Positions 27,329 to 57,594 of a DNA stretch of 64,000 nt are shown in pieces (position 1 is the first letter of the stretch; the number at the start of each line of letters is the position of its first letter). The stretch lies in the IMG/VR virus record IMGVR_UViG_3300045988_098422; one strand, 5' to 3'. The notes below the pieces were generated by a model that saw nothing but the letters and a program-made list of their open reading frames with translations, searched no databases and was not told the DNA's origin. The stretch is from a virus. The position numbers and the translations under genes are program-made.

Positions 27329-27946
27329 ATGAAGAAAGATTTCCTTAATGTTTCTCCTGATACAGGGGGGGGTAGCGGAACGGTAACTGTCACCGCTGAC
27401 CCTAATTTAAACTTTGCTAGTCGTACGACAACTTTGAATTTTAATGCTGATGGAGAAGTATTAAAAGAGGTTGAAGCGTTACAGTTTGGGAATACCATTA
27501 TTCCGCAATTTTATTTAAGTCCAACCGTTTCAAGTAACAATGACTTATGGGCGTTGAAAATTACAACAACCTTAGAACTAGAAGAATTTGCGGCTGGAGC
27601 TTATAATTTCTTGGTGGATTGTACCGCTAATAAGAAGATAGCTACGGAAGGGACAGCTCCTAATGTAACTATTTGTATTTCGGTGATTAATAGTGTTATC
27701 ATACCGAGTGGTGGAAGTAACATAAATAACCGAGAATACGATATGTATTACAGTAAAGACAACGGTACTAAGACTAAGATGACAGTAAGTAAAGACCAAT
27801 ACAGTCAGTTTATTTCTTTCCGTTTTATGGAGAGGGCTACATTTGAAGAACTAACTGTTTCTAATTATCGCTTTTGGCTTCGCAATATAAACGATGCAAG
27901 TGAAATAGAACTTCCAGTTAGGTTTAGATTAGCTTATCATTATTAA
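27329..27946 (+). CDS. poly-G paralog family member A (G8, in frame, ON); BACON/Ig-like N-module (inference)
   Basis: MKKDFLNVSPDTGGGSGTVTVTADPNLNFASRTTTLNFNADGEVLKEVEALQ shared with 4 paralogs; 205 aa. Confidence 0.75.
   Translation: MKKDFLNVSPDTGGGSGTVTVTADPNLNFASRTTTLNFNADGEVLKEVEALQFGNTIIPQFYLSPTVSSNNDLWALKITTTLELEEFAAGAYNFLVDCTANKKIATEGTAPNVTICISVINSVIIPSGGSNINNREYDMYYSKDNGTKTKMTVSKDQYSQFISFRFMERATFEELTVSNYRFWLRNINDASEIELPVRFRLAYHY
27365..27372 (+). repeat. G8 homopolymer encoding Gly-Gly-Gly
   Basis: ACA GGG GGG GGT counted directly. Confidence 0.95.
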
Positions 27947-27951
27947 AATAA

Positions 27952-27971
27952 GGGGAGCCAAATGGCTCCCC
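27952..27971. terminator. bidirectional terminator between convergent genes
   Basis: GGGGAGCC-AAAT-GGCTCCCC between + gene end 27946 and - gene end 27979. Confidence 0.7.
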
Positions 27972-27978
27972 GATTTGT

Positions 27979-28458
27979 TTACCGCATTTCGTTATAACTA
28001 CGGTTCATCCACGCTTCTTTTTCCATGCTTTCAATCATGTCCTCAAGGAAATTTAAGGTTCCTTGGTCAGCGGGTGGCACTTGGTCATGAATTTCACGGA
28101 TGCGTCTAATTACCGTGTCCCAGTCGGCAGAAATAATTTTCCACATTTCCATGTCCGTCGGGAGTGGCTGAGACATTTCAAACTCCTGAATGTGGTTTGC
28201 CTGTAACATAGCTTCCATACTACCGAGCGGTCTGCCACCTAAAGCCCGCACACGTTCAGCAACGTCATCAACACGTTCAATTTCGGCTTCATAAAGTTTC
28301 AGCATAGCTTCGTGATAGCTGCCAAAAGAAGAACCAATAACGTTCCAATGGAACTGCCATGTTTTTAGCAACAGGGTAAAGTGGTCGGCTAATAAGCCGT
28401 TCAACAGGACAAGACTTTTAGCTATGTCCTCTGATGTTAATCCAATGTTTACTTTCAT
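27979..28458 (-). CDS. dps: Dps (DNA-binding ferritin-like protein)
   Basis: LLADHFTLLLKTWQFHWNVIGSSFGSYHEAMLKLYEAEIERVDDVAERVRALGG. Start set at MKVNIG (28458; alternative start 28467) because the tracked upstream Mets run into the promoter box. Confidence 0.85.
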   Translation of the reverse strand: MKVNIGLTSEDIAKSLVLLNGLLADHFTLLLKTWQFHWNVIGSSFGSYHEAMLKLYEAEIERVDDVAERVRALGGRPLGSMEAMLQANHIQEFEMSQPLPTDMEMWKIISADWDTVIRRIREIHDQVPPADQGTLNFLEDMIESMEKEAWMNRSYNEMR

Positions 28459-28493
28459 AATGTACATTTTAAAAAGTTGATGTATATACGCCA

Positions 28494-28501
28494 CAAAGGT
28501 A
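28494..28501 (-). promoter_or_regulatory. -7 box TACCTTTG for dps (minus strand)
   Basis: Minus-strand GACTACCTTTGT, same 12-mer as the + strand promoters at 13710 and 28570. Confidence 0.55.
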
Positions 28502-28549
28502 GTCAAAAGAAAATTATTAGAAAAATCTTAGAAAAAGTCCGGTGAAGTC

Positions 28550-28579
28550 TTGTTATTTCAAAAATTATGACTACCTTTG
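28550..28579 (+). promoter_or_regulatory. Bacteroidota-type promoter in conserved cassette
   Basis: TTG 28550-52, 19-nt spacer, TACCTTTG 28572-79; about 30 nt nearly identical to 13700-13733. Confidence 0.7.
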
Positions 28580-28618
28580 TAGTGTCAATAAACAATAACT
28601 CATTAAAAATTCAAAATT

Positions 28619-28906
28619 ATGGCAACAACAGTAAATAACAAAAGAACTTTTGCAAAAGACATTGCAACTATTAGCACAGCTTTAGACGGCATAGTAGAAT
28701 TTCAAAGTATTGAATTTAGCCAAATACTTATTACGGAACATGGGCAAAGCATTAACGATTTACAGTATGTGAACAAAATACGTGGTATTTACTTTTATAC
28801 AAGCCGCAGCAAAGTAGAAAATATTGTTTGTGCTTTATGGCGTAATGAAACCCTACCGACTTATGTAGTTTGCGCTGACAGCAAAAACGTTTACGAACTT
28901 AAATGA
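28619..28906 (+). CDS. hypothetical protein
   Basis: Tracked ORF, 95 aa, downstream of promoter cassette. Confidence 0.55.
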   Translation: MATTVNNKRTFAKDIATISTALDGIVEFQSIEFSQILITEHGQSINDLQYVNKIRGIYFYTSRSKVENIVCALWRNETLPTYVVCADSKNVYELK

Positions 28907-28912
28907 TAACCC

Positions 28913-28930
28913 GTGGGGCGCAAGCCCCGC
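28913..28930 (+). terminator. hairpin terminator
   Basis: GTGGGGC-GCAA-GCCCCGC (one G-U pair). Confidence 0.45.
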
Positions 28931-28944
28931 ACAACTTTTGAATT

Positions 28945-29388
28945 ATGGAACATAACAGATGTATGATATGTGGAGCGGTTATTAGCGATAACAATACGGA
29001 CGGTATTGGTTGGGGCTGTATGGCAAATGTTGTGAAACCCGCTATTAAAGAAACTATGTGGGAAGTGTACGGGTTGGACATTTGGGTGGCAAAAGCCAAC
29101 AGAATAAAGGAAGCGTTTTTGAACGCTTATGCAGGCGTAAAATTCCGTAATGAATTTAAACGGGGGTTTTACGAAAGTATGGCGAAAGCCGAAAGGGTGA
29201 GCAAGAAACAACTGGAAATTATGAACCAGATGCTGGACGATAAATGTGTTTTGCTGGACTTTAAAGACATTTTTGAACGTTACGAGGGAATGGCACAGAG
29301 TAGCGAATGTAAAGCCCAATTTCAGGCTAATATTGCGAAATACAAGAAGATTTATTTAAGTGGACGTAAAAATAAAACGGAGGAATAA
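28945..29388 (+). CDS. hypothetical protein (Cys-rich N-terminus)
   Basis: Tracked ORF, 147 aa, CMICG...GWGC. Confidence 0.5.
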   Translation: MEHNRCMICGAVISDNNTDGIGWGCMANVVKPAIKETMWEVYGLDIWVAKANRIKEAFLNAYAGVKFRNEFKRGFYESMAKAERVSKKQLEIMNQMLDDKCVLLDFKDIFERYEGMAQSSECKAQFQANIAKYKKIYLSGRKNKTEE

Positions 29389-29390
29389 TT

Positions 29391-29711
29391 ATGAAGCCAA
29401 CTGTTGAGAATTTTCAGGTTATTAATTCAACGAGCACAGAATTGGAAGTTGAATTAACCCCAACGATACGTTTGAAGTGCCTACGTCATTCTAATCGCAG
29501 GACGGGTTCTTCGGTTTGGGAAGCTCGCTTGTACCAATTTGGGAAGTGGAGGGTGTTTAACAACCCGTTTGACCGCAAAGATTATGAGGTGGTTGAAAAA
29601 TGGGGGAAGATAAAGGCAAACGCTTTTCGGGGCGTGATTATTGCCAAAAGTTATTCCTACAAAAAGGATATTATAAGTGCTTTAAATAGCGTACCACTAA
29701 AAATAAATTGA
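29391..29711 (+). CDS. hypothetical protein
   Basis: Tracked ORF, 106 aa, 2-nt gap. Confidence 0.5.
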   Translation: MKPTVENFQVINSTSTELEVELTPTIRLKCLRHSNRRTGSSVWEARLYQFGKWRVFNNPFDRKDYEVVEKWGKIKANAFRGVIIAKSYSYKKDIISALNSVPLKIN

Positions 29712-29717
29712 TTGAAT

Positions 29718-30014
29718 ATGGCAAAGAAACAGAAAAGAGCGTTGCTAGCCGCTGAAATAGCACAGCTATGCACCAATAAAGGGTATAACAGTTTTAGTGA
29801 TTATATTCCGATTGCACCTAATAAATGGGGTGCGACACATGTTGATTTTGTGGATAACCTGAATGGATATACATGGCTTTATTTGCGTAAATTAGAGAAA
29901 CGGTTTGGCATTAAACATTATACCACCGTAGTAGAATATACTAAGCTGAACGCAGACGATAAACGTTTGGTTGAGGCTTTAATTAGGGAAGCACCTGATA
30001 AAGAAACTAAATAA
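29718..30014 (+). CDS. hypothetical protein
   Basis: Tracked ORF; start moved from TTG 29712 to ATG 29718. Confidence 0.5.
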   Translation: MAKKQKRALLAAEIAQLCTNKGYNSFSDYIPIAPNKWGATHVDFVDNLNGYTWLYLRKLEKRFGIKHYTTVVEYTKLNADDKRLVEALIREAPDKETK

Positions 30015-30023
30015 AAGAAGATT

Positions 30024-30587
30024 ATGTATTTAAAGAAAAATTTGTGGCAAAGAATTAAGTTTGCTTTTAAAACATTGTTAAGCGACGCACCGCTTGAAGA
30101 AATGTACACAACCGGATACAAAGCCGGAGTGGACGAAGTGATTAACGATTATCGTTTGTTGAAAGAAAAGTTGGTTCCGATACTGACAGAGCTAGCCACA
30201 CCACCGCAAAAGTTGGATGATAATTTTATCACGTATCCGGATATGTCGGTACGGCAACTAAGTTTCTTTAATGTTGAACACCCTACCCCACGATTTTTGC
30301 ATAACGACATTAACAGCCCTTATCCAATAGAAAGGGTAACGGTGGAAAGGGTTATATACACAGCGAACCAAGTGCAAGTGACAGCAATGTCAGACCCTAT
30401 GGTTAAACAGTTGCAGGGTGACGCCCGTTATGCTAAGTATTTGGAGCATGAGCAACGCAATGCAGCCCAACGACTAGGGGAATACCTGTTGAAGAATGGG
30501 TTTATTAGGGCGACCCGATTGGCTAGTACAAATCCCCATGACATGAGAGTTATGTACTGGACATTAACTTATACTAAGTTGCAGTAA
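30024..30587 (+). CDS. hypothetical protein
   Basis: Tracked ORF, 187 aa. Confidence 0.5.
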   Translation: MYLKKNLWQRIKFAFKTLLSDAPLEEMYTTGYKAGVDEVINDYRLLKEKLVPILTELATPPQKLDDNFITYPDMSVRQLSFFNVEHPTPRFLHNDINSPYPIERVTVERVIYTANQVQVTAMSDPMVKQLQGDARYAKYLEHEQRNAAQRLGEYLLKNGFIRATRLASTNPHDMRVMYWTLTYTKLQ

Positions 30588-30604
30588 AACAAATCTATGA
30601 ATAA

Positions 30605-30631
30605 GCCGGAAAATTTTCCGGCTTTTCTTTT
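30605..30631 (+). terminator. terminator hairpin of cassette
   Basis: GCCGGAAAATTTTCCGGC perfect palindrome then TTTTCTTTT; identical hairpin at 55340. Confidence 0.75.
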
Positions 30632-30658
30632 GCAGTTTAAATTAAAGTATTATATTTG
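30629..30658 (+). promoter_or_regulatory. Bacteroidota-type promoter in conserved cassette
   Basis: TTTG 30629-32, 18-nt spacer, TATATTTG 30651-58, leader CGGTGTCAATAAAAAC. Confidence 0.65.
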
Positions 30659-30683
30659 CGGTGTCAATAAAAACTTAATAGTT

Positions 30684-31292
30684 ATGTCAACAGAAAATTT
30701 AGTACCCGCAGCAATACTCTTAAAGATTAAGAAGTTGCAAGAACTAGCCTTGAGAGGCGTAGGTGGTGAGGCGCAAAATGCTCAAAGAGTTTTAGAAGCC
30801 TTGTGTGAAAAATATGGTTTAACCCTTGAGGATTTAGACCAAGATGCAAAAGTAACTTATGAATTTCCACTACGAGCTTCTATTCGTTCGCTGTTTGTTA
30901 ATTGTTTTACGTACATGTTTGGGGCGAATACCCGCTTTAAAGAAGACTACACGGCTTATCGTGGCTGTGATACAAAGAAAGAATGGGTGGAATTAAATCT
31001 GACACCTAGCGAATATATAGAATTTTCACAGTTCTGGGAATGGCATAAACATAATTTTCTTAAAGAACGTGCTGCCATGCGTGAAGCGTTTAAGAGTGCC
31101 TATTGTGAAAAGCACCAATTATTTACAAACGATTTTGCCGACGATATACGTGAGGAGCTAGATAGCCGTAAAGAACCGACCTTAGAGGAAATAATGGCGA
31201 TTAAAGCACTGGCGGGGACGCTTAAAAATAATACCTATCATAAACAGATTGGGAGCAGTGCAAACGCTTATAACGAGGAGGACGAAGAATGA
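30684..31292 (+). CDS. hypothetical protein, DUF2786-like N-terminus (tentative)
   Basis: Start moved to ATG 30684 because the tracked start 30597 runs through the terminator and promoter. The N-terminus LLKIKKLQELALRGVGGEAQNAQRVLEALCEKYGL resembles DUF2786. ATGA overlap with the sigma gene. Confidence 0.45.
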   Translation: MSTENLVPAAILLKIKKLQELALRGVGGEAQNAQRVLEALCEKYGLTLEDLDQDAKVTYEFPLRASIRSLFVNCFTYMFGANTRFKEDYTAYRGCDTKKEWVELNLTPSEYIEFSQFWEWHKHNFLKERAAMREAFKSAYCEKHQLFTNDFADDIREELDSRKEPTLEEIMAIKALAGTLKNNTYHKQIGSSANAYNEEDEE

Positions 31293-31930
31293 TGACTACA
31301 AAAGAGCGTGACTTCCATTTAGTACAAAAGGCTTTAGGTGGAGATAACAAGGCTTGTGAAACAATATACAACAGGTTTAACAGGGCGGTAAATTATCAGA
31401 TAGGCAAGATAGTGATGGACACCGAAATAGCCTTAGACCTTACAATGGAAACATTTGAAAAGATATTTACCCGTTTGCACCGCTATCAGCCGGATTACTG
31501 TTTAAGCACATGGGTGAGCCGCATAGCTACTAACACCGCATTAGATTACACCCGAAAAGTAAGGCGTGTTACAATTGTAAGTATAGAAGCAAGTATAGAA
31601 AACGAGGATGGGGCAGATATACAGGTGATGGACGACGAACCAACTCCCGATGAGCGTATAATCTTAACACAAAAGATGACCTACCTTACAGGGCTGATGC
31701 GGTACATGCAGCCGAATGAATGTAGGCTGTTGCAACTGTATTACGTGAACGACATGGGTTATACCGAAATAGCTGACGAAATGGATATTTCGGTGCGTGT
31801 TGTCAGGCAGTATATCAGGGATGCACGCAATAAACTACGCAAGTTGACGCAGGAAATAAGCATGCGGGAAGTATTAACCAAAGAACAAAGAAGATATGAA
31901 AAAGAATTACAGAGCCAAGTTACAGGGTGA
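31289..31930 (+). CDS. RNA polymerase sigma-70 family factor (ECF-like, two-domain)
   Basis: Region 2 TWVSRIATNTALDYTRK; region 4 HTH MGYTEIADEMDISVRVVRQYIRDARNKLRK; 213 aa. Confidence 0.8.
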   Translation: MMTTKERDFHLVQKALGGDNKACETIYNRFNRAVNYQIGKIVMDTEIALDLTMETFEKIFTRLHRYQPDYCLSTWVSRIATNTALDYTRKVRRVTIVSIEASIENEDGADIQVMDDEPTPDERIILTQKMTYLTGLMRYMQPNECRLLQLYYVNDMGYTEIADEMDISVRVVRQYIRDARNKLRKLTQEISMREVLTKEQRRYEKELQSQVTG

Positions 31931-32171
31931 ATTTGACATTATACAATTAACCGATGACAATTATGAGGAAGTGGTAGCCTTTATCGCCAGAAAGGATGAA
32001 TATGCTGTTTTTGACGAAACCTTTTGCAACAGTTCTACTCCTTACATAGAATTTATACAAGATGCACGCATGAAATGCGTGCAACGAGGCGATTATGTAT
32101 TTACAACTCCTGACGGCACGTTGCATATAATGTCCAAGGAAAAATTTGAGAGCACTTATGAGGAGATTTAG
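31896..32171 (+). CDS. hypothetical protein
   Basis: Tracked ORF, 91 aa, 35-nt overlap. Confidence 0.45.
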   Translation: MKKNYRAKLQGEFDIIQLTDDNYEEVVAFIARKDEYAVFDETFCNSSTPYIEFIQDARMKCVQRGDYVFTTPDGTLHIMSKEKFESTYEEI

Positions 32172-32173
32172 CT

Positions 32174-32413
32174 ATGGAACTGCTAGAAAGAGAAAATACG
32201 GTTACGGCATGGGGCGTGAAAGATGGTGTAGTCACTGTAATAGGCGTTGACTTTGGGCATAAGAACGATTATGCTGTTAAGACAACGTTAAAGAAATATC
32301 CGGATGGTAGAGTTGAAGTTGCAAGTTCTGAACATATTGGGCGGGCAATTGACTTTAACGACCCCACCCGCAAACAAAAAGTTATTGACGAAATTAGAAA
32401 CTTTAAATTATAG
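32174..32413 (+). CDS. hypothetical protein
   Basis: Tracked ORF, 79 aa. Confidence 0.5.
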   Translation: MELLERENTVTAWGVKDGVVTVIGVDFGHKNDYAVKTTLKKYPDGRVEVASSEHIGRAIDFNDPTRKQKVIDEIRNFKL

Positions 32414-32417
32414 AAAA

Positions 32418-32795
32418 ATGGAAAAATTGATTTTGTTTGTATTGATTGGATTAGTGCTTGTTTTGGCGTGTTGCAAAATGTATTTTAAAGTGCGTTTTGA
32501 GTATTTGTTGCGTGAAATGGCTAAGTACCAAAAGAGAAAATTGCAAGTAGACAAGAGAGTATATATGGTGTATTATGTGCCATTAGTTCCAGACTTATGT
32601 GATAGTCGGGTGGTTGCCCAAATGGTGAATGAAAAAGATTGGGGAATATTTTGTCAACCAGATTGTGAAGCGATTGAGTTGTATATACAGGCGAATCCCA
32701 ATTGCCGAGTATTTAATATTCCGACGGTACTGTTCAATCCCGATAATGTGGAATTAAACTTTAGAGCTATTTACAAAGTAGTACGAGTAAAATGA
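32418..32795 (+). CDS. membrane/secreted hypothetical protein
   Basis: Start moved to ATG 32418 (MEKLILFVLIGLVLVLACC hydrophobic N-terminus), 4 nt after previous stop. Confidence 0.5.
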   Translation: MEKLILFVLIGLVLVLACCKMYFKVRFEYLLREMAKYQKRKLQVDKRVYMVYYVPLVPDLCDSRVVAQMVNEKDWGIFCQPDCEAIELYIQANPNCRVFNIPTVLFNPDNVELNFRAIYKVVRVK

Positions 32796-33145
32796 AAACA
32801 GAAGTAACAAGAACGGTTGTAACGTTGGTTGAAGTACATACCCGTGAAATGGGTGACGCCACTGTAAAGGGTGTGGGCAAAGTATCTAATGATTCCACAT
32901 TGTCAAGAAAAATATGGATTAATGGGGAAGAAGTGTATGCTGAACAGTACCCGACACGTTGCATAGACAAATTTGCACAGCCAGAACTCCAAGCGTTTGT
33001 AGAAATGTTGAGTAAGTATGAAGTCCCACGCAAAAGGAGCGTGCACCTATCTACGGGCTTCTATAAGACATTATGTATAGTCTTGGCGTGTATTTGGCTA
33101 GTTACATTATTATTCTTTCTATATAGACCTAATTTGAGCTTATGA
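32792..33145 (+). CDS. hypothetical protein with C-terminal TM helix
   Basis: ATGA overlap; C-terminus LCIVLACIWLVTLLFFLY. Confidence 0.5.
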   Translation: MKTEVTRTVVTLVEVHTREMGDATVKGVGKVSNDSTLSRKIWINGEEVYAEQYPTRCIDKFAQPELQAFVEMLSKYEVPRKRSVHLSTGFYKTLCIVLACIWLVTLLFFLYRPNLSL

Positions 33146-33351
33146 GAAAACAATTGCCACCACCCCCGCCAAAGCCAAGAGAGGGGCAAACAAGAGTAAG
33201 AAGTTGGTTTGCTTGAAAGCCTGTAACAATTGGATACGAACAACGTTGGTTGGAAAAAGTAACTGTATTAGAAGTGTGCCGTTACCATAGTCTTCCACAT
33301 ATTGGGGAAGTACCTGAATGGGACAAAGTTAAATTTATAGATGAATAAAAT

Positions 33352-33558
33352 ATGGATTGGAGTTTTATGATAGTAGTCGGACCGCTTGTGATACTAATAG
33401 TATTTGGGTGGAACATTTGGTATTGGAATAACGAGGAGTGCCCTAAATGTGGCAGTCATAGAAACGATTACTTGGGTGGTGCGGGGCACTGTAAAGATAA
33501 GTACCAATGCAAGAAATGTGGAAAAGAATTTATTAAAAGACACGCTTTTTATGATTAA
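33352..33558 (+). CDS. small membrane protein with zinc ribbon
   Basis: N-terminal TM FMIVVGPLVILIVFGW; CPKCGSH...CKKCGKEF. Confidence 0.5.
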   Translation: MDWSFMIVVGPLVILIVFGWNIWYWNNEECPKCGSHRNDYLGGAGHCKDKYQCKKCGKEFIKRHAFYD

Positions 33559-33889
33559 ATATTATTGGTTTGAAAATAGCCAACTTCTACCCTATTGTGA
33601 AACAGGCAAATGTCAGGTTGCTAGTGCAGCGTGTCACGATTGTCCTATGTGCTTGGGAATAAATAAAGTTGAGCGACAGGTGCAATGTGGAGCAGATGGT
33701 ACAGGCTATCATGAAACCCCGTTTGAGAAATTAACAGTGGGGCAAGAGTTCAGCTTGCATCAGACGTTGCTTGAGCCTATTTACACCGTGTTAGAAAAAC
33801 AAGGGGTTGAGACCCTGTTGGTTCAGTCACACGTAACTGGCATAAGCCAGATGCGATATAGTGGAAACGTGTTTGTAATAAGAAAGTGA
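33551..33889 (+). CDS. hypothetical Cys-rich protein
   Basis: Start moved to ATG 33551 (8-nt overlap with previous gene); CETGKC..CHDCPMC. Confidence 0.45.
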   Translation: MIKYYWFENSQLLPYCETGKCQVASAACHDCPMCLGINKVERQVQCGADGTGYHETPFEKLTVGQEFSLHQTLLEPIYTVLEKQGVETLLVQSHVTGISQMRYSGNVFVIRK

Positions 33890-33896
33890 GGGTATA

Positions 33897-34142
33897 ATGA
33901 AAAATATTTGTTATCTATTGGCTATAATGTTCTTAAACAAGGACGGAATGGTGGGGCATCAGAATGTATATGTAAATGTCAAAGGAGACGAGTTTATATT
34001 ATCAAAGGTTGTTGCTCGCCTTTGTCAAGATTATGGTTTTCAAAAAGTAACTGTTCTATATAGAACGGAAGTAGCCAAGACGGAGTTTGAAGCAAACTTT
34101 GCTGAAAATCCAGAGATATGTTGTTTTGTCTATCCTAAATAA
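33897..34142 (+). CDS. hypothetical protein
   Basis: Tracked ORF, 81 aa. Confidence 0.45.
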   Translation: MKNICYLLAIMFLNKDGMVGHQNVYVNVKGDEFILSKVVARLCQDYGFQKVTVLYRTEVAKTEFEANFAENPEICCFVYPK

Positions 34143-34153
34143 ATTGAGGGCGT

Positions 34154-34345: not shown

Positions 34346-34346
34346 T

Positions 34347-49039: not shown

Positions 49040-49661
49040 ATGAAGAAAGATTTTATTACAGTTCTTCCCGAATCGGGGGGGGGGTGACGCACAGGTTCAA
49101 GTAACCGCTGACGTCAATCCAAGTTTCGCAAGTCGTGAAACTACTATCAATTTTAACGCCAACGGGCAAGTTCTTAAAAGTATTCGGGCTGTTCAGGACG
49201 GTATGCCGTTTGTTTGTCAATTAGGTTTTGATGCACCTGCTAATTTAAGTCAAGGGTTCTTTATTCAATATTTTGGGCTTACTCGTACAGGTGGAACTAA
49301 TGGCTGTCCGCTAATAAATGGAATTATAGCCAGAATTATAAAGTTAGACAACGACTTTAAATTAATTCCTATGTTTGGTTGTTTGCGTTCATTTTGGAAA
49401 GAAACCGATGATAAAGAATTAATTGCCGAGCTTAGATGGACGGACAATACAGGGTATGAAGTTGGGAAAACGTACCTAAATTTTACTTTTGACAACGAAG
49501 ACGGTGAGGAGTGGGCTAATTATACCGCTGAATTTAGCGGGTCGGATTTAGTTGTGCCGAGTGATGCTTACAGATTAAGAGTGAGTGTTGGCTTTGGACG
49601 TGGTGATGTTGGTATCGAAGATAATAATTACATTTGGCAGTATTATTTATCTTTCCAATAA
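49040..49661 (+). CDS. poly-G paralog family member B (G10, frame-shifted OFF as written)
   Basis: ATG 49040 gives MKKDFITVLPESGGG then TGA. With G9 it reads SGGGDAQVQVTADVNPSFASRETTINFNANGQVLKSIRAVQDGMPFVCQ..., in frame with tracked ORF 49203..49661. Confidence 0.7.
49075..49084 (+). repeat. G10 homopolymer
   Basis: aatcGGGGGG GGGGtgac counted directly. Confidence 0.95.
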
Positions 49662-49671: not shown

Positions 49672-49691
49672 TCCCGGAAGAAATTCCGGGA
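49672..49691 (+). terminator. terminator hairpin of cassette
   Basis: TCCCGGAA-GAAA-TTCCGGGA then TTTTCTTTG. Confidence 0.7.
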
Positions 49692-50545: not shown

Positions 50546-51322
50546 ATGGATTTAAAAGACAAAAGAATTGTATTTGTAGGGCTGGACGATGTGCTTATTA
50601 AAACACATTCTAACAAAGAAAAGCCCGTGGGCGTATGGGACATGGAATTCAACCTGAATGTGTTGGAAAAGCTGAAACAACTCAACCCGATTGCTATCTT
50701 TGTTGTAAGCAACCAACCGGACATTCCTGCCAAATTGCACCCGTCACTGTTCCAAGCGAAGTTCGTGTATGTTATTGCGGCACTTCAGGAATACATTGGT
50801 ATGACGGTTTTCCCCGCTGGACAGTATGCGCCTGAAATGCCAGAGGGCGAAGCTCCTATCGCTATGCCGAATTCGACTATGTTGTTGACAATGTTTAATG
50901 AGTTCCTAGCAACGTCTCGTATGGAGCTTAATAGAGAGGATTGCGTAGTGATTGGTACGGGTGAAGAGTATGCGGGTGCGGCTCAAGCCTTTGGATGTGA
51001 TTATTTGGACGTGGCACATTTGTTGGAAGAAAATTTGGGCGAGCCTCTATTCAAGCTCGTATGGAATATTCCGTCCTACGATTTGGTGATTGACCCCGAA
51101 AATCAAGCTATTATGGAAAATCTACCGTGGGAATTTGCGGTTCACCGTGCGGAACAGATTAACAAGCTGCCATTTAAACAAGCAGATGTCCTTGTCGTGG
51201 CTCAAAAATGGGCAACTCCAAAACCTATGGAACATAAAGAATTTAAAGTAGATGCTCGCAAGTTGTCAAAAGGGGCTCAACGAAAAGTTGCGATGCAAAT
51301 TAAGAAAGGAGGGAAGAAGTAA
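50546..51322 (+). CDS. hypothetical protein; N-terminal HAD-IIIA-like region with non-canonical motif I (tentative)
   Basis: RIVFVGLDDVLIKT ... IFVVSNQPDI resembles PNKP/GmhB phosphatase motifs I and II, but the nucleophile Asp position is Gly. Confidence 0.4.
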   Translation: MDLKDKRIVFVGLDDVLIKTHSNKEKPVGVWDMEFNLNVLEKLKQLNPIAIFVVSNQPDIPAKLHPSLFQAKFVYVIAALQEYIGMTVFPAGQYAPEMPEGEAPIAMPNSTMLLTMFNEFLATSRMELNREDCVVIGTGEEYAGAAQAFGCDYLDVAHLLEENLGEPLFKLVWNIPSYDLVIDPENQAIMENLPWEFAVHRAEQINKLPFKQADVLVVAQKWATPKPMEHKEFKVDARKLSKGAQRKVAMQIKKGGKK

Positions 51323-51957
51323 TGGCTATAATTAACGTAGAACTCCGCATGATGATTGCCGAACGTTTGGCAAATGACAATTACCGTGAAGAAATTAAAG
51401 AGGTAAAAGAATCGTTACGCCTGCACCTATTAGCCTACCTCAAGGAGAATTATATTCCTAAAGAAGTACAAACAGTGTTTGAAAAGTATCCACAGTTTTT
51501 CAAGGCAGTTGAGGCAATTTACATAGCTTCCTACAACTTTAAGAATTATCTGCCTGCTGAATGGGGAAGCCGTACTCATCACGCAGATATTAATTTCCAT
51601 GAAAGTTTGCCCCTAGACAAAGAAGAGGTTTACACTTTACTGAAATCCATTCCTAAAGAAAACTATATCCACGAATTAATGCGCAAGTATTTTAAATTGG
51701 AAATGGACAGGTACTTTATGGAAAAGCGGTTGAAATGTATTATGCAGACCCAACGGTTCACACCAAAGACATTGGAGCAAGACTTTCCAGAGGCTTACAA
51801 AGTGTATTTGGACATTACGACTTCTGATGCTTACGACAGTGCCAAAGAACCAAACGGAGCAACCGCTACCCTCTGTGATAATATTGAAAATATTCGTGCC
51901 CAACTAAAAACGAACAGAAATGTTGAAGAAAAAGTACAAGCCAAGTCGGCTGAATAA
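51322..51957 (+). CDS. hypothetical protein
   Basis: Tracked ORF, 211 aa, TAATG overlap. Confidence 0.55.
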   Translation: MAIINVELRMMIAERLANDNYREEIKEVKESLRLHLLAYLKENYIPKEVQTVFEKYPQFFKAVEAIYIASYNFKNYLPAEWGSRTHHADINFHESLPLDKEEVYTLLKSIPKENYIHELMRKYFKLEMDRYFMEKRLKCIMQTQRFTPKTLEQDFPEAYKVYLDITTSDAYDSAKEPNGATATLCDNIENIRAQLKTNRNVEEKVQAKSAE

Positions 51958-51979
51958 ATGGTACACTAAACACTTCGTT

Positions 51980-52003
51980 CTGACCCCGTGTATGCGGGGT
52001 CAG
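51980..52003 (+). terminator. hairpin (9-bp perfect stem)
   Basis: CTGACCCCG-TGTATG-CGGGGTCAG; no T-run. Confidence 0.45.
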
Positions 52004-52042
52004 GCAGAAGTTACTGAAGTAGTGCTCGTTTGGTGGTGTTTT

Positions 52043-52270
52043 ATGTCGTTTTTATATAACGATAGTTTGCTCAATATAATTTGTGCGCATGGCGCAACCT
52101 TTATAGAAATATTAAAGAAGGAAAATGACACCTATACGCAACAATTTGTTTTTAATGCTAATGGTGAAACTATGTGTATTCCGTCCAGTAAAGGGCGAAG
52201 AGAAAGATATTTCAAACAAATCAACGGGATTATTTACGAAATTACGTATGATACCCCACCTGATGAATAA
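52043..52270 (+). CDS. hypothetical protein
   Basis: Start moved to ATG 52043 because tracked start 51920 overlaps the upstream gene and reads through the hairpin. Confidence 0.45.
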   Translation: MSFLYNDSLLNIICAHGATFIEILKKENDTYTQQFVFNANGETMCIPSSKGRRERYFKQINGIIYEITYDTPPDE

Positions 52271-52289
52271 CAATTAAATATCAACGATT

Positions 52290-52667
52290 ATGCTAATTTA
52301 TTTGAATGGAATACCCCTGCAAGGTAATGCACACGATGCACGGGTTCAATCCGCATTACCTTTGTCACGTATTGTTGAAGTGACGGAAGTGGAACAAATA
52401 CCTCGTTTTGGTGACAAATGGGTGTTTAGTATTCGTCTTGATGATGGGCAAGTTGTGTGCTCTGAACCTTGCGAAACTCAACAAGAGGCTGAAATGCACC
52501 AATTGTCCACAGTAAGTCAAATTAATGCTTTAGAAGTGTACGAGCACCGTTTAAAATGTGATTTGCCCGTGTCAAACATTGCTTGTCATTATGTGGATGT
52601 AGCTAAAAAACAATTGATACAATTTTCGTTAGACCCGTTGTATCCAGTATTCACTATTAAAATTTAA
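52290..52667 (+). CDS. hypothetical protein
   Basis: Tracked ORF, 125 aa. Confidence 0.5.
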   Translation: MLIYLNGIPLQGNAHDARVQSALPLSRIVEVTEVEQIPRFGDKWVFSIRLDDGQVVCSEPCETQQEAEMHQLSTVSQINALEVYEHRLKCDLPVSNIACHYVDVAKKQLIQFSLDPLYPVFTIKI

Positions 52668-52671
52668 TTTC

Positions 52672-53520
52672 ATGGAAGTAGTAAAATATGTTATAGCCTA
52701 TCAATTTTTGCCCGGAAAATTACCCAGATATATATCACGTTCTGTAAGCGTTGACGAAAGTCTTGATGCTGATGTTATGCTCCATCTTTGTGAAGTATTT
52801 GTAAACAGAGAAGAAACGACGGATGCAAGATACTTCGGCAAGCCTTATATTATTGGGGCTTTCACTAACAATTCAAAATTTCCTAATTTTTGCTTTGCAT
52901 GTAACACAAACGCTGATTTGAGTATTTGCCGCACATGCAAAATGAAGAAACAGGCGTTGCAGGCTTTAAAAGAGCAAGAGACTCCTGATAATTTAGGTCA
53001 GGAAGAAGAACAGAAAAACCAAAGTTTTGACCCGAATAATACGCCAAAAGAAAGAATGAAAGAGCCGTATTATTGCTTCGTTTACGAAGGAACATTTATG
53101 AAGATGTCAGAAAATGGTGACAATCCTCCTATCAGCAAGCTAATATTGAAATTTTACGAAAAGAAGCCTCTTGTTCTTAACGAATGGTTGCAGAACAAAT
53201 TCAAGGAAGAATTTGAAAAACAACAAAAAGAATTCGGCTGGAGCTTGGTAGGTTTGACCCTCGTTAATGTTGAGCCAACAGGCAGTTATTCTGACCCCTC
53301 GTGTTTCCACCCTAACGAACCTTACAGAATGTATTGGGTACGTGTGCAGGATATGTCTCAGAAAGAGGGCGGTGTAAACTGGATTCCAGGATTTGAACAG
53401 AACGGTAAAATGTGGAGTGTTATCGGTGAATTACTTGACCCCGACAGCCCAGATGACACCCGTCCTTTTAAGGATTCACCTTTTGAAGATTACGTAGTAG
53501 TCCGTAAACCTGGAAATTAG
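52672..53520 (+). CDS. hypothetical protein
   Basis: Tracked ORF, 282 aa; CFACN..CRTC Cys pairs. Confidence 0.55.
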   Translation: MEVVKYVIAYQFLPGKLPRYISRSVSVDESLDADVMLHLCEVFVNREETTDARYFGKPYIIGAFTNNSKFPNFCFACNTNADLSICRTCKMKKQALQALKEQETPDNLGQEEEQKNQSFDPNNTPKERMKEPYYCFVYEGTFMKMSENGDNPPISKLILKFYEKKPLVLNEWLQNKFKEEFEKQQKEFGWSLVGLTLVNVEPTGSYSDPSCFHPNEPYRMYWVRVQDMSQKEGGVNWIPGFEQNGKMWSVIGELLDPDSPDDTRPFKDSPFEDYVVVRKPGN

Positions 53521-53542
53521 CCCTCTATTGCCATTTTATATT

Positions 53543-53575
53543 GAGCACCGGACAATTGCTTCGGTGCTCTTTTTA
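53543..53575 (+). terminator. rho-independent terminator
   Basis: GAGCACCG-11 nt-CGGTGCTC then TTTTTATTT. Confidence 0.7.
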
Positions 53576-53643
53576 TTTGCCTGTATAGACGCTTAAAATG
53601 CGTTATGTTTTGTGGAACTTCTTTTGTGTTGACTGATGAAAAT

Positions 53644-53654
53644 TGCGTATATTT
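53644..53654 (+). promoter_or_regulatory. TGCGTATATTT motif, copy 2
   Basis: Exact 11-mer; 55 nt upstream of ATG 53709; flanked by related AAAATGCGT repeats at about 53597 and 53668. Confidence 0.4.
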
Positions 53655-53708
53655 ACACACTCTTAAAAATGCGTAGAAGAGTTAGTATTAACTTAAAATT
53701 ATCAAATC

Positions 53709-54596
53709 ATGTACAAAGACTTTGTAAATGTAACCCCTGAAAGCGGTGGCGCAGGCACTACTCCGATAGCTGTTGCCGCTGATGAAAACGAAGGAGCTGC
53801 ACGCAGCACTTCACTCAATATTGCGGGTGGCGGTGTGACACGAACTGTCTCTATCACTCAAAAGAAAATGCTTGTGGAAAACCAAATTGAAGTTAAATAT
53901 TGGTTAGACGCAGCAACTAGCGGGACAGGCAAGTCAATTTATTTGGAAGCCTATGCAAACAATGATGTAGCAAGCAACCTGAAAATTAACTTTAGCATTG
54001 ACCAACAGGGACCGACAGGCGAATGGGAAACCAACACTCCAGTAGAAATACTGATAAATACTGGAGATAACGCTTCCACAACTTATGAAATTCCATATTA
54101 TGATTACGGATGGCGTTTTCATGAAGAAGTGGCTACTATTACCCCTTCTCAAGATGAAGATTTTATTTATGATTTTGCAGGATTCATTGAAGAATTTAGG
54201 GCTCCAGAAATTGGTATCTGGAAAATAAACACGCTTACAGGAGAACCAAATGGAGGAGAAGCAACAAACCCATCAGCCGTTTATCAAGTTTCTTCAAACG
54301 CTGACTTCAAAAAAGTTTTGACTTTTGCTTCTTTGGGTGGAGTTACTTTTTATGATGAAAGCGGTTTAGCAAGTATGACACTTACTTGGTTACAAATCCA
54401 ATATTCAGATGAAATTGGGCAAAAGCCATACGCTATTTCTGTTCGGGGTGGCTTTACAGGAGTATCAGAATTAAACACTATGCTTTGGAGTGGTAAATTC
54501 CAAAATGGAGTTATTAATGCAACTTATCAAGCCCAATTTAAAATAGATGGCGTTATTCGCAATTTTAAATGGCGAATTCAAGGAGCACACATTTAA
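53709..54596 (+). CDS. poly-G paralog family member E (no tract; GG encoded GGT GGC; constitutively in frame)
   Basis: MYKDFVNVTPESGGAGTTPIAVAADENEGAARSTSLNIAGGG; 295 aa, longer divergent C-domain. Confidence 0.75.
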   Translation: MYKDFVNVTPESGGAGTTPIAVAADENEGAARSTSLNIAGGGVTRTVSITQKKMLVENQIEVKYWLDAATSGTGKSIYLEAYANNDVASNLKINFSIDQQGPTGEWETNTPVEILINTGDNASTTYEIPYYDYGWRFHEEVATITPSQDEDFIYDFAGFIEEFRAPEIGIWKINTLTGEPNGGEATNPSAVYQVSSNADFKKVLTFASLGGVTFYDESGLASMTLTWLQIQYSDEIGQKPYAISVRGGFTGVSELNTMLWSGKFQNGVINATYQAQFKIDGVIRNFKWRIQGAHI

Positions 54597-54608
54597 CGTA
54601 TAAATAAC

Positions 54609-54626
54609 GGGGAACTCCGGTTCCCC
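54609..54626 (+). terminator. terminator hairpin
   Basis: GGGGAAC-TCCG-GTTCCCC. Confidence 0.6.
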
Positions 54627-54652
54627 TATTGTTTCACTTAATAATTATAATT

Positions 54653-55304
54653 ATGAAGAAAGATTTTGTAACAATTACCCCAGATACGGGGGGGGGGCTC
54701 GGCTACTCCACAAGTAACCGCTGAACCCAATGTGACGGCACAGTCACGCTCAACAACTCTCAATTTTGATGCCAACGGAAAGCAGCTTAAATCCGTTCAA
54801 GTCAATCAACTCGGTATTCCATGGTTCATAAATGTGTGTACCGCCATTCAGGGCGAAATAACTGAAGCCAATACAAACGTCGGACATTCTTTAAAAGAAG
54901 TGGATTTTTCGCCTAGTGGCGATGGTGGTAGTATGCCAAATATTCCATTCTTTCAGTATGATTTTGAAATAAATAATTTCAATTACACCAGTAAGACGGT
55001 TTGGTATTTAGCTCTGGAAGCTAATATATTAGGTACTTTGATTGATACCAATACGGAATATTTAATTCTGGAATTTGATTTAGGCAAAGGAGATGGGTGG
55101 GAACGAATGGAATTTATGTGGGAAAATACCTTTGAGGGCTATCAATATTGGCGCAATACGACACCCAACGTTTACCCCAATGAATATCCGACAGTTAAAA
55201 CTGTCCAAATGCGAGTTGGAATTGGTGATAATACTGACCCAGAGCCTATTCATACTTATCTTGCTCAATTTACAGTAAATATCGTATTAAGCCCCCGACC
55301 CTAG
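54653..55304 (+). CDS. poly-G paralog family member C (G10, frame-shifted OFF as written)
   Basis: ATG 54653 gives MKKDFVTITPDTGGGLGYSTSNR then stop. With G9 it reads TGGGSATPQVTAEPNVTAQSRSTTLNFDANGKQLK, in frame with tracked ORF 54732..55304. Confidence 0.7.
54688..54697 (+). repeat. G10 homopolymer
   Basis: atacGGG GGGGGGGctc counted directly. Confidence 0.95.
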
Positions 55305-55339
55305 CGTAGCCAACATGATTTGATTACGCATTTGGATAA

Positions 55340-55357
55340 GCCGGAAAATTTTCCGGC
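55340..55357 (+). terminator. terminator hairpin of cassette
   Basis: GCCGGAAAATTTTCCGGC (identical to 30605) then TTTTTCTTTG. Confidence 0.75.
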
Positions 55358-55363
55358 TTTTTC

Positions 55364-55394
55364 TTTGCCAATCCAATTTATCTGCCTATCTTTG
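55364..55394 (+). promoter_or_regulatory. Bacteroidota-type promoter in conserved cassette
   Basis: TTTG 55364-67, 19-nt spacer, TATCTTTG 55387-94, leader GGGTGTCAAATTAAAA. Confidence 0.7.
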
Positions 55395-55410
55395 GGGTGT
55401 CAAATTAAAA

Positions 55411-55701
55411 ATGGATTTAGTTATGGAAGTACAAGTAGTTAAAACAACAGTAAAAGCCGCAGCTGGAGTTAAAGAAACGAATTATGCTGCAATTATAAAC
55501 AAGTATTGTAGACAAATCGGTTTCATTACTGATGATGGTATTTATTTAGAACTTTATGACCAAAACCTAAGAGGTTTTGGTATAGGTAGTTTTCAGAAAA
55601 TAGATACAGGCGATGCCAAACCGTTTAGATGGTTATGCAAAATAGTAGAAGATAATTGGGACGCTATGTACGACCGCTATACTTTGGCGATAAAAGGATA
55701 A
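55411..55701 (+). CDS. hypothetical protein
   Basis: Tracked ORF, 96 aa. Confidence 0.55.
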   Translation: MDLVMEVQVVKTTVKAAAGVKETNYAAIINKYCRQIGFITDDGIYLELYDQNLRGFGIGSFQKIDTGDAKPFRWLCKIVEDNWDAMYDRYTLAIKG

Positions 55702-55874
55702 GGAAAGATATTTAGATATACGTATAATAGACGTTGACATAACATTATTTTATTATTTAAGCGAATACTTTTTGTATTTTACCCGAAGCGTCGGGGTTAA
55801 CAAGATGAAACCCGTGAGGGCGGATATTGTCGTAGTAACACGAGTTTTAAAGATTATGTTTATTGATTGGCATG

Positions 55875-55896
55875 GGGCGGAGAATATTCTCCGCCC
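55875..55896 (+). terminator. terminator hairpin
   Basis: GGGCGGAGAATATTCTCCGCCC perfect 22-nt palindrome then TTGCTTTTT. Confidence 0.7.
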
Positions 55897-55927
55897 TTGC
55901 TTTTTCAAAGAAATTGATTTACCTTTG
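55897..55927 (+). promoter_or_regulatory. Bacteroidota-type promoter
   Basis: TTG 55897-99, 20-nt spacer, TACCTTTG 55920-27. Confidence 0.65.
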
Positions 55928-55944
55928 TATTTTAAACAACCAAA

Positions 55945-56400
55945 ATGATGAGACCTTTAGTAATAGTTGGAACCTGCAAAGAATTGCATAAGTGCGCTCG
56001 GTTGCTTGACAGGTTTGGATATATACCTGTCAATTGCCGGATACCTACGTGTGACAATCACGATGGGGGTTTCATTATACTCAATCGTGAGGGCGAGTTT
56101 AGGTTCTCAACATGCAATTTGTACGCAAATTTGGACTGCATGGTAACAGCCTCTGACTTCCTAAAGAATTACGGGGGTTTAGGAATACGCAGCCCGTACA
56201 GCCTAAAGAACATCTATTTTGCCTGCACACTTGGTTTGTTGGTTATGGGTATGGAAGGAAGCCTTCCTGTCGGTAGAATGTGGCTATTGGCTTTCTTTGC
56301 TATTAATATACCACTACATTTTAAAACGATTAAAACATGGTTTACACATGGGAAAGAAAGAAGATTTGGAAAGAGAAGAGCAAAAGCTGATAAAGATTAA
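55945..56400 (+). CDS. hypothetical membrane protein
   Basis: Tracked ORF, 151 aa; C-terminal TM segments IYFACTLGLLVMGM, WLLAFFAINIPL. Confidence 0.5.
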   Translation: MMRPLVIVGTCKELHKCARLLDRFGYIPVNCRIPTCDNHDGGFIILNREGEFRFSTCNLYANLDCMVTASDFLKNYGGLGIRSPYSLKNIYFACTLGLLVMGMEGSLPVGRMWLLAFFAINIPLHFKTIKTWFTHGKERRFGKRRAKADKD

Positions 56401-56824
56401 GTTATTGCTCGTAAAGGATTTTGAAGAACTGGATAAGGGGGAGTTACAAGTATTGCGTAACTACACCCGTGAAGTGTACCACATTGCGGGTGAAATAAAA
56501 TTGGGAGTAAATGAGTTGCTTAATGCTTATCTAATTTTTAAACGCAAGTTTATCACCACTTTGGAAACTGTTGCGGTATGTCCTTATCCGATGATAGAAG
56601 CGGGCGGGAGCTTCGTAGCTGCACAAACTACGTATGCCCCAATAGCTGTTACGACATTTGACGGAGTTTTTAGCTCTTCTAAGGAAACTTTTACTATTAA
56701 CGGATGGCAAAGTTTACCCGTACTCACAGTGTTCTATTTTGACGACAGTACCGAGGTGTGTTGTCTTGCTCCTAATGGACATTTTTGCCGGATAACGAGC
56801 AAGACTTTGCAGTTTGATATATAA
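56348..56824 (+). CDS. hypothetical protein
   Basis: First ATG (56348, MGKKEDLEREE) of tracked ORF 56219..56824 that gives a protein-like N-terminus; 53-nt overlap with the upstream gene remains. Confidence 0.4.
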   Translation: MGKKEDLEREEQKLIKIKLLLVKDFEELDKGELQVLRNYTREVYHIAGEIKLGVNELLNAYLIFKRKFITTLETVAVCPYPMIEAGGSFVAAQTTYAPIAVTTFDGVFSSSKETFTINGWQSLPVLTVFYFDDSTEVCCLAPNGHFCRITSKTLQFDI

Positions 56825-56835
56825 TGCGTATATTT
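56825..56835 (+). promoter_or_regulatory. TGCGTATATTT motif, copy 3
   Basis: Exact 11-mer, here followed by G (TATATTTG); 137 nt upstream of ATG 56972. Confidence 0.4.
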
Positions 56836-56881
56836 GTTGCATCAGTCATGAATGAATAAAGTTGAAATGGTGTTTGAAGGC

Positions 56882-56920
56882 GAGCCGCTTTGAGTAGTGA
56901 TACTAGAGGCGGCTCTTTTT
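56882..56920 (+). terminator. rho-independent terminator (long loop)
   Basis: GAGCCGC-20 nt-GCGGCTC then TTTTT. Confidence 0.5.
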
Positions 56921-56932
56921 AACGTATAATCA

Positions 56933-56953
56933 ATGACACGGCTACCGTGTCAT
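56933..56953 (+). other. perfect 9-bp hairpin just upstream of paralog D
   Basis: ATGACACGG-CTA-CCGTGTCAT. Confidence 0.5.
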
Positions 56954-56971
56954 AACTTAAATATTTTAGAT

Positions 56972-57594
56972 ATGAAGAAAGATTTTATTACTGTAACCCC
57001 TGAATCGGGGGGGGGGCAGGCACAACAGTAAACGTTGTTGCTGACCCTAATTTTGGCTCTATGCCTAGAAAAACAACCTTAAATTTTGCGGCAAATGGGC
57101 AACCGCTTAACAAAGGAATAGAAGTTTCTCAAATAGGAAGTTTCTTTCAATTATTTGCTTTTCCCAACTTTACTTTAGCAACAACCTCACCCAATCAACA
57201 GTACATGTTGAAAATGTTTTTGGATAGTTTGGACTATGATGAGGTTGAATTTCAAGGACAAACTTTTAATGTTCCTTATTATGGGGTACAAACTACCAAA
57301 GCCACGGGAGTAACTCTGTATGATGCCTTCTTAGACTTCCATTTATTATTTTCCACAGAAGCAATTAATAGCTTACAAATCACTGAATTTGTGGCTGATG
57401 TTGAATCAAATAATGGAGGGGTAAGCACTGTGTCTTTAACGCCCGCCCAAGTAGAAACAAATTTGGGTGTGTCAGAATTTACACTAAGCACTAAATCACT
57501 TAGTGGATTACAAACTTTGCATCAGGTCACTTTTTATGCCATTATAAACAATGCGAAAGTGCAAATTTGCAGAGTAGGAAATGCCGTTAGATAA
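56972..57594 (+). CDS. poly-G paralog family member D (G10, frame-shifted OFF as written)
   Basis: ATG 56972 gives MKKDFITVTPESGGGQAQQ then stop. With G11 (or G8) it reads SGG(G)AGTTVNVVADPNFGSMPRKTTLNFAANGQPLNK, in frame with tracked ORF 57061..57594. Confidence 0.7.
57007..57016 (+). repeat. G10 homopolymer
   Basis: aatcGGGG GGGGGGcagg counted directly. Confidence 0.95.

Follow-up and report, generated by a model that had tools for sequence, protein, structure and literature searches.

Poly-G tracts as probable slipped-strand ON/OFF switches in a BACON-module gene family of an uncultured human-gut phage

A gene family with poly-G tracts in its common module

The DNA examined in this work is the IMG/VR virus record IMGVR_UViG_3300045988_098422, a stretch of 64,000 nucleotides analyzed over its whole length and hereafter called the window. 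It contains a family of five genes, named A to E, which have an N-terminal module in common and differ in their C-terminal parts. In four of these genes the glycine codons of the module are written as an uninterrupted run of guanines, or poly-G tract (Table 1). Below, an allele is called ON if its tract leaves the full-length reading frame open and OFF if the frame is lost. An initial annotation of the window had proposed that the tracts are hypermutable ON/OFF switches of phage surface proteins.

A hidden Markov model of the N-terminal module, run against the six-frame translation of the window, detected exactly the five genes described in that annotation, and the matches of C and D were split between two frames at the tract. 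The suspected resemblance to BACON domains was upheld by the Pfam BACON model (PF13004), which covers residues ~3-54 of all five proteins (E-values from 1e-7 to 2e-5). Relative to a cut-off of 25 bits, the scores are 32.0 for A, 25.4 for B, 27.4 for C and 26.4 for D, with E slightly under it (24.6). The C-terminal parts do diverge completely, as had been stated: profile-profile comparison with hhalign found no mutual similarity among the main domain types, every probability being lower than 4%. About 29 C-domain types were found in the wider family, most of them with an uninterrupted run. Beyond codon 15, the module DNA of the window paralogs is 50-58% identical, and the same codon is used at about half of the identical residues; judging from these figures the five paralogs are old. 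Gene conversion among them was considered and rejected.

The four tracts stand out in the window. A scan for G or C runs of at least 6 nt retrieved exactly four, one G8 and three G10, and none other longer than 5, in agreement with what had been seen by eye; the next longest are G5 (38 runs) and C5 (7 runs). A first-order composition model expects ~9 runs of at least 6 nt, 0.5 runs of at least 8 and 0.03 runs of at least 10. As G6 and G7 runs are absent, long G-runs are generally avoided in the window and concentrated at four sites. Each tract of genes A-D starts 35-36 nt past the ATG of an open reading frame (ORF) that begins MKKDF. Elsewhere in the window GGG accounts for 21% of glycine codons, and none of the 74 other Gly-Gly pairs is written GGG-GGG. 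Within the window and its relatives, at least 200 of 226 tracts of seven or more G's fall within the BACON N-module.

A frame check gave the same states as the initial annotation: A is in frame, B and C rejoin the conserved frame at G9, D rejoins it at G11 or G8, and E is recoded as GGT GGC. Gene A has ACA in place of ACG ahead of its tract, which is why its G8 falls one G short of the G9 found in the common ON allele.

A weak but concordant alignment places the N-module on the BACON region (residues 71-121) of a solved structure of glycoside hydrolase family 16, 8va4_A. In this alignment the tract falls in a loop that already differs by two residues in length, and the second tract present in some members of the family falls in the turn before the last strand. 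From these placements, two to four glycines should be tolerated at both tract positions.

Each family gene looks like a transcription unit of its own, as judged from terminator-like hairpins. The family upstream consensus is an A/T-rich leader and nothing more. Upstream of the genes the motif AACTWAAW is not enriched (23 matches, 26 expected), and TAnnTTTG, which is mildly enriched in the window, fails to separate family genes from others.

A longer family-like gene was found in a 96-kb relative (L033, positions 9775-10728, minus strand). It would encode 317 aa if restored, carries a tract at the second position only, and lies ~1.4 kb upstream of terminase and portal genes. The same locus has, elsewhere, another G10 run (position 5319 of the reverse complement) in a BACON-like loop that reads VSIA-GGG-ITKSLNISQ.

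Table 1. Family genes, poly-G tracts and other features of the window
Feature	Position	Strand	Remarks
Gene A	27329-27946	+	BACON N-module and unique C-domain; ON as written at G8, 205 aa
Gene B	49040-49661	+	OFF at G10, stop directly after the tract (15 aa); 206 aa at G9 or G12
Gene E	53709-54596	+	Tract-free, Gly-Gly written GGT GGC; 295 aa
Gene C	54653-55304	+	OFF at G10, stop 8 codons past the tract (23 aa); 216 aa at G9 or G12
Gene D	56972-57594	+	OFF at G10, stop 4 codons past the tract (19 aa); 206 aa at G8, 207 aa at G11
Poly-G tract of A, G8	27365-27372	+	
Poly-G tract of B, G10	49075-49084	+	
Poly-G tract of C, G10	54688-54697	+	Highest-ranking indel site when loci are aligned to the window
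Poly-G tract of D, G10	57007-57016	+	Frame restored by +1 or -2, a shift opposite to that of B and C
Terminator-like hairpin after B	49672-49691		Consensus scan only
Terminator-like hairpin between E and C	54609-54626	+	Consensus scan only
Terminator-like hairpin after C	55338-55359		Consensus scan only
Terminator-like hairpin after D	57623-57644		Consensus scan only
GIY-YIG homing endonuclease	22829-23527		Adjoins the ribonucleotide reductase gene
GroEL chaperonin	23569-25179		
Ferritin/DPS-like gene	27979-28467	-	
Sigma-70-family (r2/r4) factor	31289-31930		

Tract length, frame state and selection in natural alleles

Public viral and metagenome contigs were scanned for the start-of-gene DNA motif of the family, at first with a G-run required and then without this requirement. 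The scan yielded 156 loci from more than 100 assemblies, mostly of human gut, and 159 distinct family alleles. Orthologs were considered strict if their downstream DNA was more than 85% identical. Relevant observations can be described as follows:

(i). Tract length varies among close relatives. The 15 strict orthologs of gene A include G6, G7, G8, G9 (8 alleles), G10 (3 alleles) and G12. Those of gene C, 19 in number, comprise G6 (2), G7 (3), G8 (2), G9 (6), G10 (5) and G11, and split into 8 ON and 11 OFF. Gene E, which carries no tract, is intact in all 15 strict orthologs; no close ortholog of gene D was present among the collected loci. When alleles have 600-nt flanks that are 1-3 substitutions apart, tract length differs in 20 of 31 pairs, and ~75% would be expected if lengths were fully randomized. 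The indel rate per aligned copy is 0.65 for G10 tracts, 0.35 for the G8 tract and 0.02 for G5/C5 runs.

(ii). Frame states are close to random. Tracts are in frame in 48 of 151 cases (31.8%; binomial test against 1/3, p=0.73). Alleles without a tract of at least 7 are ON in 45 cases and OFF in 2 (of 47), those with one tract are ON in 22 and OFF in 51 (22/73, 30%), and those with two tracts are ON in 6 and OFF in 33 (6/39, 15%). Among the first 75 alleles, all 20 lacking a tract were ON, compared with 11 of 52 with a tract (Fisher p=3e-10). Interruption of the tract was found in three loci, L018, L042 and L045, and the gene is ON in all three; the interrupted sequences are GGGGAGGGG, which is the allele of gene B in L045, GGGGAGGGGGG and GGGGGGAGGGGG.

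(iii). The ON/OFF states of different genes within one genome are statistically independent, and coordinated switching within genomes was rejected on this basis. Altogether, frame states look free-running.

Could these patterns be produced by sequencing or assembly? If so, real runs would always be in frame, and both the OFF states and the length differences would be short-read homopolymer errors. Illumina chemistry is known to have trouble with poly-G, the contigs are without exception consensus sequences, and five of them (L013, L020, L025, L102 and L147) have one end located precisely in a family poly-G tract when ~1 would be expected. The latter observation suggests that assembly graphs break there, as from read heterogeneity or poor poly-G read quality. 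An artefact of this kind is, however, very improbable, as it would require a wrong consensus in ~70% of tracts. Moreover, lengths span 6-12, beyond an error of ±1; OFF states are present in assemblies of 61x, 531x and 581x coverage; the same pattern recurs in more than 100 independent assemblies; the indel rate of G5/C5 runs is 30-fold lower; and the in-frame fraction fits 1/3 and is not near 1.

Among public gene calls for the family (P0007-P0010 and P0027-P0037), many are proteins of 150-170 aa that lack the N-terminal part. These look like calls made from internal starts of OFF alleles, as if automated annotation fragmented the family. Gene callers would indeed truncate or miss such genes, and assemblies break at the tracts, so that gut-virome annotation systematically under-reports the family.

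The reading frames downstream of the tracts bear marks of selection. In ortholog pairs with enough divergence, OFF-OFF pairs included, pN/pS downstream of the tract is 0.04-0.35. For gene C it ranges from 0.09 to 0.34 across sufficiently diverged pairs; the OFF-OFF comparison of locus L023 with the window shows 22 synonymous and 7 nonsynonymous differences (pN/pS 0.09). Genes at the B position, again an OFF-OFF pair, differ between L023 and L029 by 15 synonymous and 2 nonsynonymous changes (pN/pS 0.04). In the first 30 loci, all complete tract genes but one were restored to an ORF of 170-226 aa by a change of ±1 at each tract, and in the whole collection merely a handful of tract alleles cannot be restored by ±1 or ±2. 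By these measures the ORFs downstream of OFF tracts are under purifying selection and are not pseudogenes.

The view that the family is dispensable, and that its G-runs are hot spots which have inactivated most copies, might draw on the high proportion of OFF states among tract-bearing alleles (84 of 112) and on a few alleles with extra lesions, such as a nonsense TAG in L048 or an extra C in L010. We find it scarcely credible: decay is at odds with the low pN/pS of diverged pairs, with the restoration of nearly all alleles by a tract change alone, and with the persistence of the homopolymer across old paralogs against codon-usage expectation. As the uninterrupted run is kept in four diverged paralogs and in most C-domain types, selection appears to act on the homopolymer itself and not just on the glycines it encodes. 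The sequence comparison thus points to the repeat as a selected feature.

One group of loci shows a different kind of change. Very close alleles of group G0 (L026:4756, L027:8617 on the minus strand, L028:10205 on the minus strand, and relatives) are rich in nonsynonymous changes and nearly devoid of synonymous ones (e.g., 15 vs 1), and the nonsynonymous changes cluster at C-domain residues ~115-150. This clustering suggests diversifying selection or recombination of a putative binding surface.

A probable stochastic switch and its alternatives

We consider it probable that the poly-G tracts are slipped-strand ON/OFF contingency switches in a BACON-module phage gene family. The hypermutable contingency loci envisaged in the initial annotation are strongly supported by the ortholog lengths of G6-G12, by near-random frames, by purifying selection, and by the fact that tract-free and interrupted alleles are nearly always intact.

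The switch might operate as follows. Each gene would encode a BACON (immunoglobulin-like) module of ~55 aa at the N-terminus, followed by a C-terminal domain that is probably beta-rich and comes in many unrelated types. In four of the five paralogs, the Gly-Gly-Gly loop of the module is written as G8-G10 without interruption. Slipped-strand mispairing during phage DNA replication, at a within-lineage rate that we infer, would add or drop G's and shift the frame 12-15 codons into the gene. Each gene would therefore flip stochastically, reversibly and independently between a full-length product (ON) and a peptide of 15-23 aa (OFF). If the loop tolerates two to four glycines, G6, G9 and G12 (or G8 and G11) would all give a functional frame. 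In more distant members, a second tract in the next glycine turn would reduce the ON fraction to ~1/9 and act as a stricter gate, while a point interruption (GGGGAGGGG) or recoding (GGT GGC in gene E) would lock the gene ON. A phage population would then hold different combinations of expressed genes, as many as 16 in the case of this genome, in a form of bet-hedging. The most likely pay-off would be host or glycan interaction, or escape from host recognition.

Several points weigh against this interpretation. One is that all contigs are consensus assemblies, in which single-assembly length calls at G9-G11 may err by one; length variation is known from comparison between assemblies. The loci collected from two ~108-kb contigs of one sample (OGCO...163 and OGCO...164) do not overlap. 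Another is gene B, which looks stabler than expected: the window copy and its positional counterparts in L023, L029, L030 and L041 are all G10, even though the counterparts in L023, L029 and L030, which have the N-module in common with window B, have diverged from it in the C-terminal part. In addition, 49 of 151 tracts are G10, more than have any other length, yet just 2 of these 49 are in frame. Such an excess does not follow in an obvious way from a pure random walk; expression through slippage at the RNA level, or an advantage of the OFF state, might lie behind it. Finally, the adaptive pay-off is conjecture.

The excess of out-of-frame G10 alleles is also the main argument for programmed recoding, either by RNA-polymerase slippage or by ribosomal frameshifting. 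OFF alleles, and especially G10 alleles, would still give a low level of full-length protein; the tract would be a dimmer, and DNA-length variation a by-product. Homopolymers of nine or more are known RNA-polymerase slippage sites, and a second variable homopolymer (A7-A11) is found at an ORF overlap in the same phage. Recoding as the whole explanation seems nonetheless distinctly unlikely. To restore the frame, 25 of the G10 tracts need -1 and 22 need +1, so that no single direction fits; G6, G8, G9, G11 and G12 all occur as in-frame alleles, as do interrupted tracts; past the tracts, RNA structure is neither consistent nor uniformly stable (z = -0.5, -3.4, -1.9 and -0.9); and length distributions are alike for the ON classes 0 and 2 (mod 3), independently of frame class (chi-square p=0.11). 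Recoding may add leaky expression alongside DNA-level switching, but it does not replace it.

A peculiarity of G11 was observed as well: tracts of this length are in frame in 7 of 8 cases, and frame classes 0 and 2 dominate gene designs. No tested model accounts for these G10 and G11 patterns.

A broader and rather unlikely speculation starts from the same slipped-strand switches. The BACON half-module might be a common docking piece and the C-domains interchangeable specificity heads, with one-tract (~1/3) and two-tract (~1/9) switches giving a combinatorial, heritable and reversible repertoire of virion adaptors or host-interaction factors; or else the out-of-frame G10 might be a programmed, low-level RNA-polymerase-slippage dimmer layered on the DNA switch. 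Were either version true, gut phages would possess a new regulatory logic, and a handle on their host range would be available.

Protein function, phage identity and precedents

The proposal that the family encodes surface proteins was not borne out. Genes A-E have no match among PHROG families, and the PHROG search on the 10 commonest neighbor genes gave nothing informative. PDB sequence profiles returned a weak BACON match and nothing beyond it; an ankyrin match from a single-sequence PDB query was dismissed as chance. Structure prediction of the N-module and C-domain, which the initial annotation had recommended, was of little help: the AlphaFold2 models of A and E are all-beta and of low confidence (predicted local distance difference test scores, pLDDT, of 56 and 53), with the N-module lower than 50 and the last ~130 residues of E at ~75. 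Foldseek searches with both models against PDB and BFVD retrieved no hit below E=1e-3, only generic beta-sandwich or barrel noise. Hence, no homology or fold similarity to virion proteins was found in PHROG, PDB or BFVD. An exhaustive phmmer search of the non-BACON part of E against 1.84 billion representatives retrieved 12 proteins, all of them family members or fragments, so that the E C-terminal domain is, by sequence, an orphan. No obvious signal peptide can be read in the proteins, which begin MKKDF and lack a hydrophobic stretch.

The family genes of the window sit among small accessory ORFs, after the replication genes; in some relatives, a family block is found 1.4-6 kb upstream of terminase and portal genes. 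By analogy, the combination of a conserved N-module with unrelated C-domains, clustered nonsynonymous changes and per-copy switching would be reminiscent of modular host-recognition proteins.

The window has 41% G+C, and 97 of its 100 called ORFs are on the + strand. Within its first 27 kb lie genes for a DnaE-type polymerase, SbcCD, a UvsX/RecA-like protein, an NAD-dependent ligase, GroEL and two helicases, as well as for a ribonucleotide reductase, next to which is a GIY-YIG endonuclease gene. The structural module of the phage is outside the window. The nearest relatives of the polymerase, at merely 30-39% identity, belong to phages of Tenacibaculum, Cellulophaga (phiST), Chryseobacterium and Bacteroides. 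The candidate family 'Gratiaviridae' (Benler et al. 2021), whose hosts are predicted from CRISPR data to be Bacteroides and Parabacteroides, is described as having a phiST-related DnaE-family polymerase, SbcCD, a RecA-like ATPase, helicases of superfamilies 1 and 2, and ferritin-like genes; the description contains no mention of poly-G tracts (PMC8008677). The window has the DnaE-type polymerase, SbcCD, the RecA-like protein, helicases and a ferritin-like gene. This agreement in gene content supports classification of the phage as 'Gratiaviridae'-like and as a phage of gut Bacteroidota, and together with the polymerase relatives it sustains the Bacteroidota context assumed in the initial annotation.

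A near-identical relative is a 150-kb contig; contigs of ~107-110 kb, found in many assemblies labeled human gut, represent more distant relatives. Megablast of the 27-50 kb region against cultured phages gave no match. No family copy was found when 185,579 bacterial and archaeal species were scanned, each represented by one genome: the start-motif scan of genomes and metagenome-assembled genomes gave 9 matches, all by chance and none a family member, and hence no prophage copy and no clue to the host. A tRNA scan of the window detected none.

The closest precedent, correctly cited in the initial annotation, is found in Campylobacter phages of the genus Fletchervirus, in which several genes for receptor-binding proteins contain hypermutable G7-G11 tracts (Sorensen et al. 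2021, Cell Rep 35:109214, as related in PMC10877375 and bioRxiv 10.1101/2025.10.21.683753). As far as these accounts go, both cases involve a lytic phage of more than 100 kb, tracts in several ORFs of one genome, frameshift subpopulations and paralogous or parallel targets. Differences exist, however: Fletchervirus phages are T4-like phages of Campylobacter, whereas the phage described here is a DnaE-type, 'Gratiaviridae'-like phage of gut Bacteroidota; their targets are receptor-binding proteins, and those found here are BACON-module proteins with orphan C-domains, known from sequence alone. In addition, the tract of the present family lies in a conserved domain module, where every paralog has it at an identical codon, and a second tract is present in some members.

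Contingency loci have also been described in T2 agt, T4 rIIA, and other coliphages and vibriophages (Gomez, Barrick and Waters, bioRxiv 10.1101/2025.10.21.683753). There, repeats in phage ORFs slip at reversible rates raised ~1000-fold, in a manner interpreted as bet-hedging; but those repeats are mostly poly-A of 6-9, scattered in ordinary genes and ON by default, while here long poly-G is conserved at a single codon in a dedicated gene family whose natural alleles are mostly OFF. Single poly-G tracts are known in a BPP-1 methylase gene and in a PB1-like baseplate gene (bioRxiv 10.1101/2025.10.21.683753).

Among bacterial contingency genes, the pentamer repeats of Neisseria opa and the poly-G of lgt (PMC2192423), as well as Campylobacter poly-G genes, resemble the present family in having the repeat in the conserved 5' part of each paralog, independent switching, combinatorial expression, and the variable part downstream. 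Those families, however, reside in cellular genomes and comprise surface or glycosyltransferase genes of known function, whereas the carrier here is a virus. BACON proteins of crAssphage and other gut phages, for which adhesion to glycans or cells has been proposed and not shown (de Jonge et al. 2019, PMC6949934; Benler et al. 2021, PMC8008677), likewise consist of PF13004 modules encoded by phages of gut Bacteroidota. In those phages, however, the modules are tandem repeats in large proteins of the structural block and undergo repeat turnover, while the present proteins have a single N-terminal module, 170-295 aa, a location outside a recognized structural block, and poly-G switching.

A literature search found no report of poly-G switches in Bacteroidota phages, and in the literature consulted multi-gene poly-G switches in one phage were otherwise found only for Fletchervirus. 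The initial annotation had likewise named no equivalent in a phage with Bacteroidota-type promoters, but the 2025 preprint on contingency loci of T-even and other phages makes the phenomenon less new in kind. Poly-G and poly-A contingency loci of phages are already known; new are the carrier group ('Gratiaviridae'-like, uncultured, of the human gut), the protein family, the location of one or two tracts in glycine turns of a domain, and the breadth of the evidence from natural populations. Phase variation in the arms race between gut phages and Bacteroides is usually viewed as a matter of the bacterial side (capsule switching). Here, a widespread group of uncultured human-gut phages carries a poly-G contingency family of its own, which in more than 100 metagenomes behaves like a set of free-running switches.

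Variable homopolymers were also detected outside the family. The run A8 at 61036-61043 (GAT AAA AAA AAG TGA) is the sole A/T homopolymer longer than 6 in the window, and lies where a 365-aa ORF (59950-61047) overlaps a 103-aa ORF (61010-61321) in the +1 frame. Relatives 97-99% identical at this site have A7, A8 (4 alleles), A9 or A11, and either A7 or A10 would join the two ORFs. The site is therefore a second candidate for slippage or contingency, which would toggle a C-terminal extension.

In three relatives (L017:1025 on the plus strand, L068:1998 and L107:319 on the minus strand), a gene that does not belong to the family, with an ORF of at least 211 aa, contains a G9 or G10 tract close to the 3' end of this ORF. 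With G8 or G11 the gene would read into a conserved 42-aa tail (beginning MSVPFWDNFCDSPAFYA), which is out of frame in the three copies.

Lastly, the 608-aa product of the gene at 61657-63483 carries at its C-terminus a toxin domain of the papain-fold glutamine-deamidase type (Pfam Gln_amidase, E-value 7e-15) and is kept in relatives (L121).

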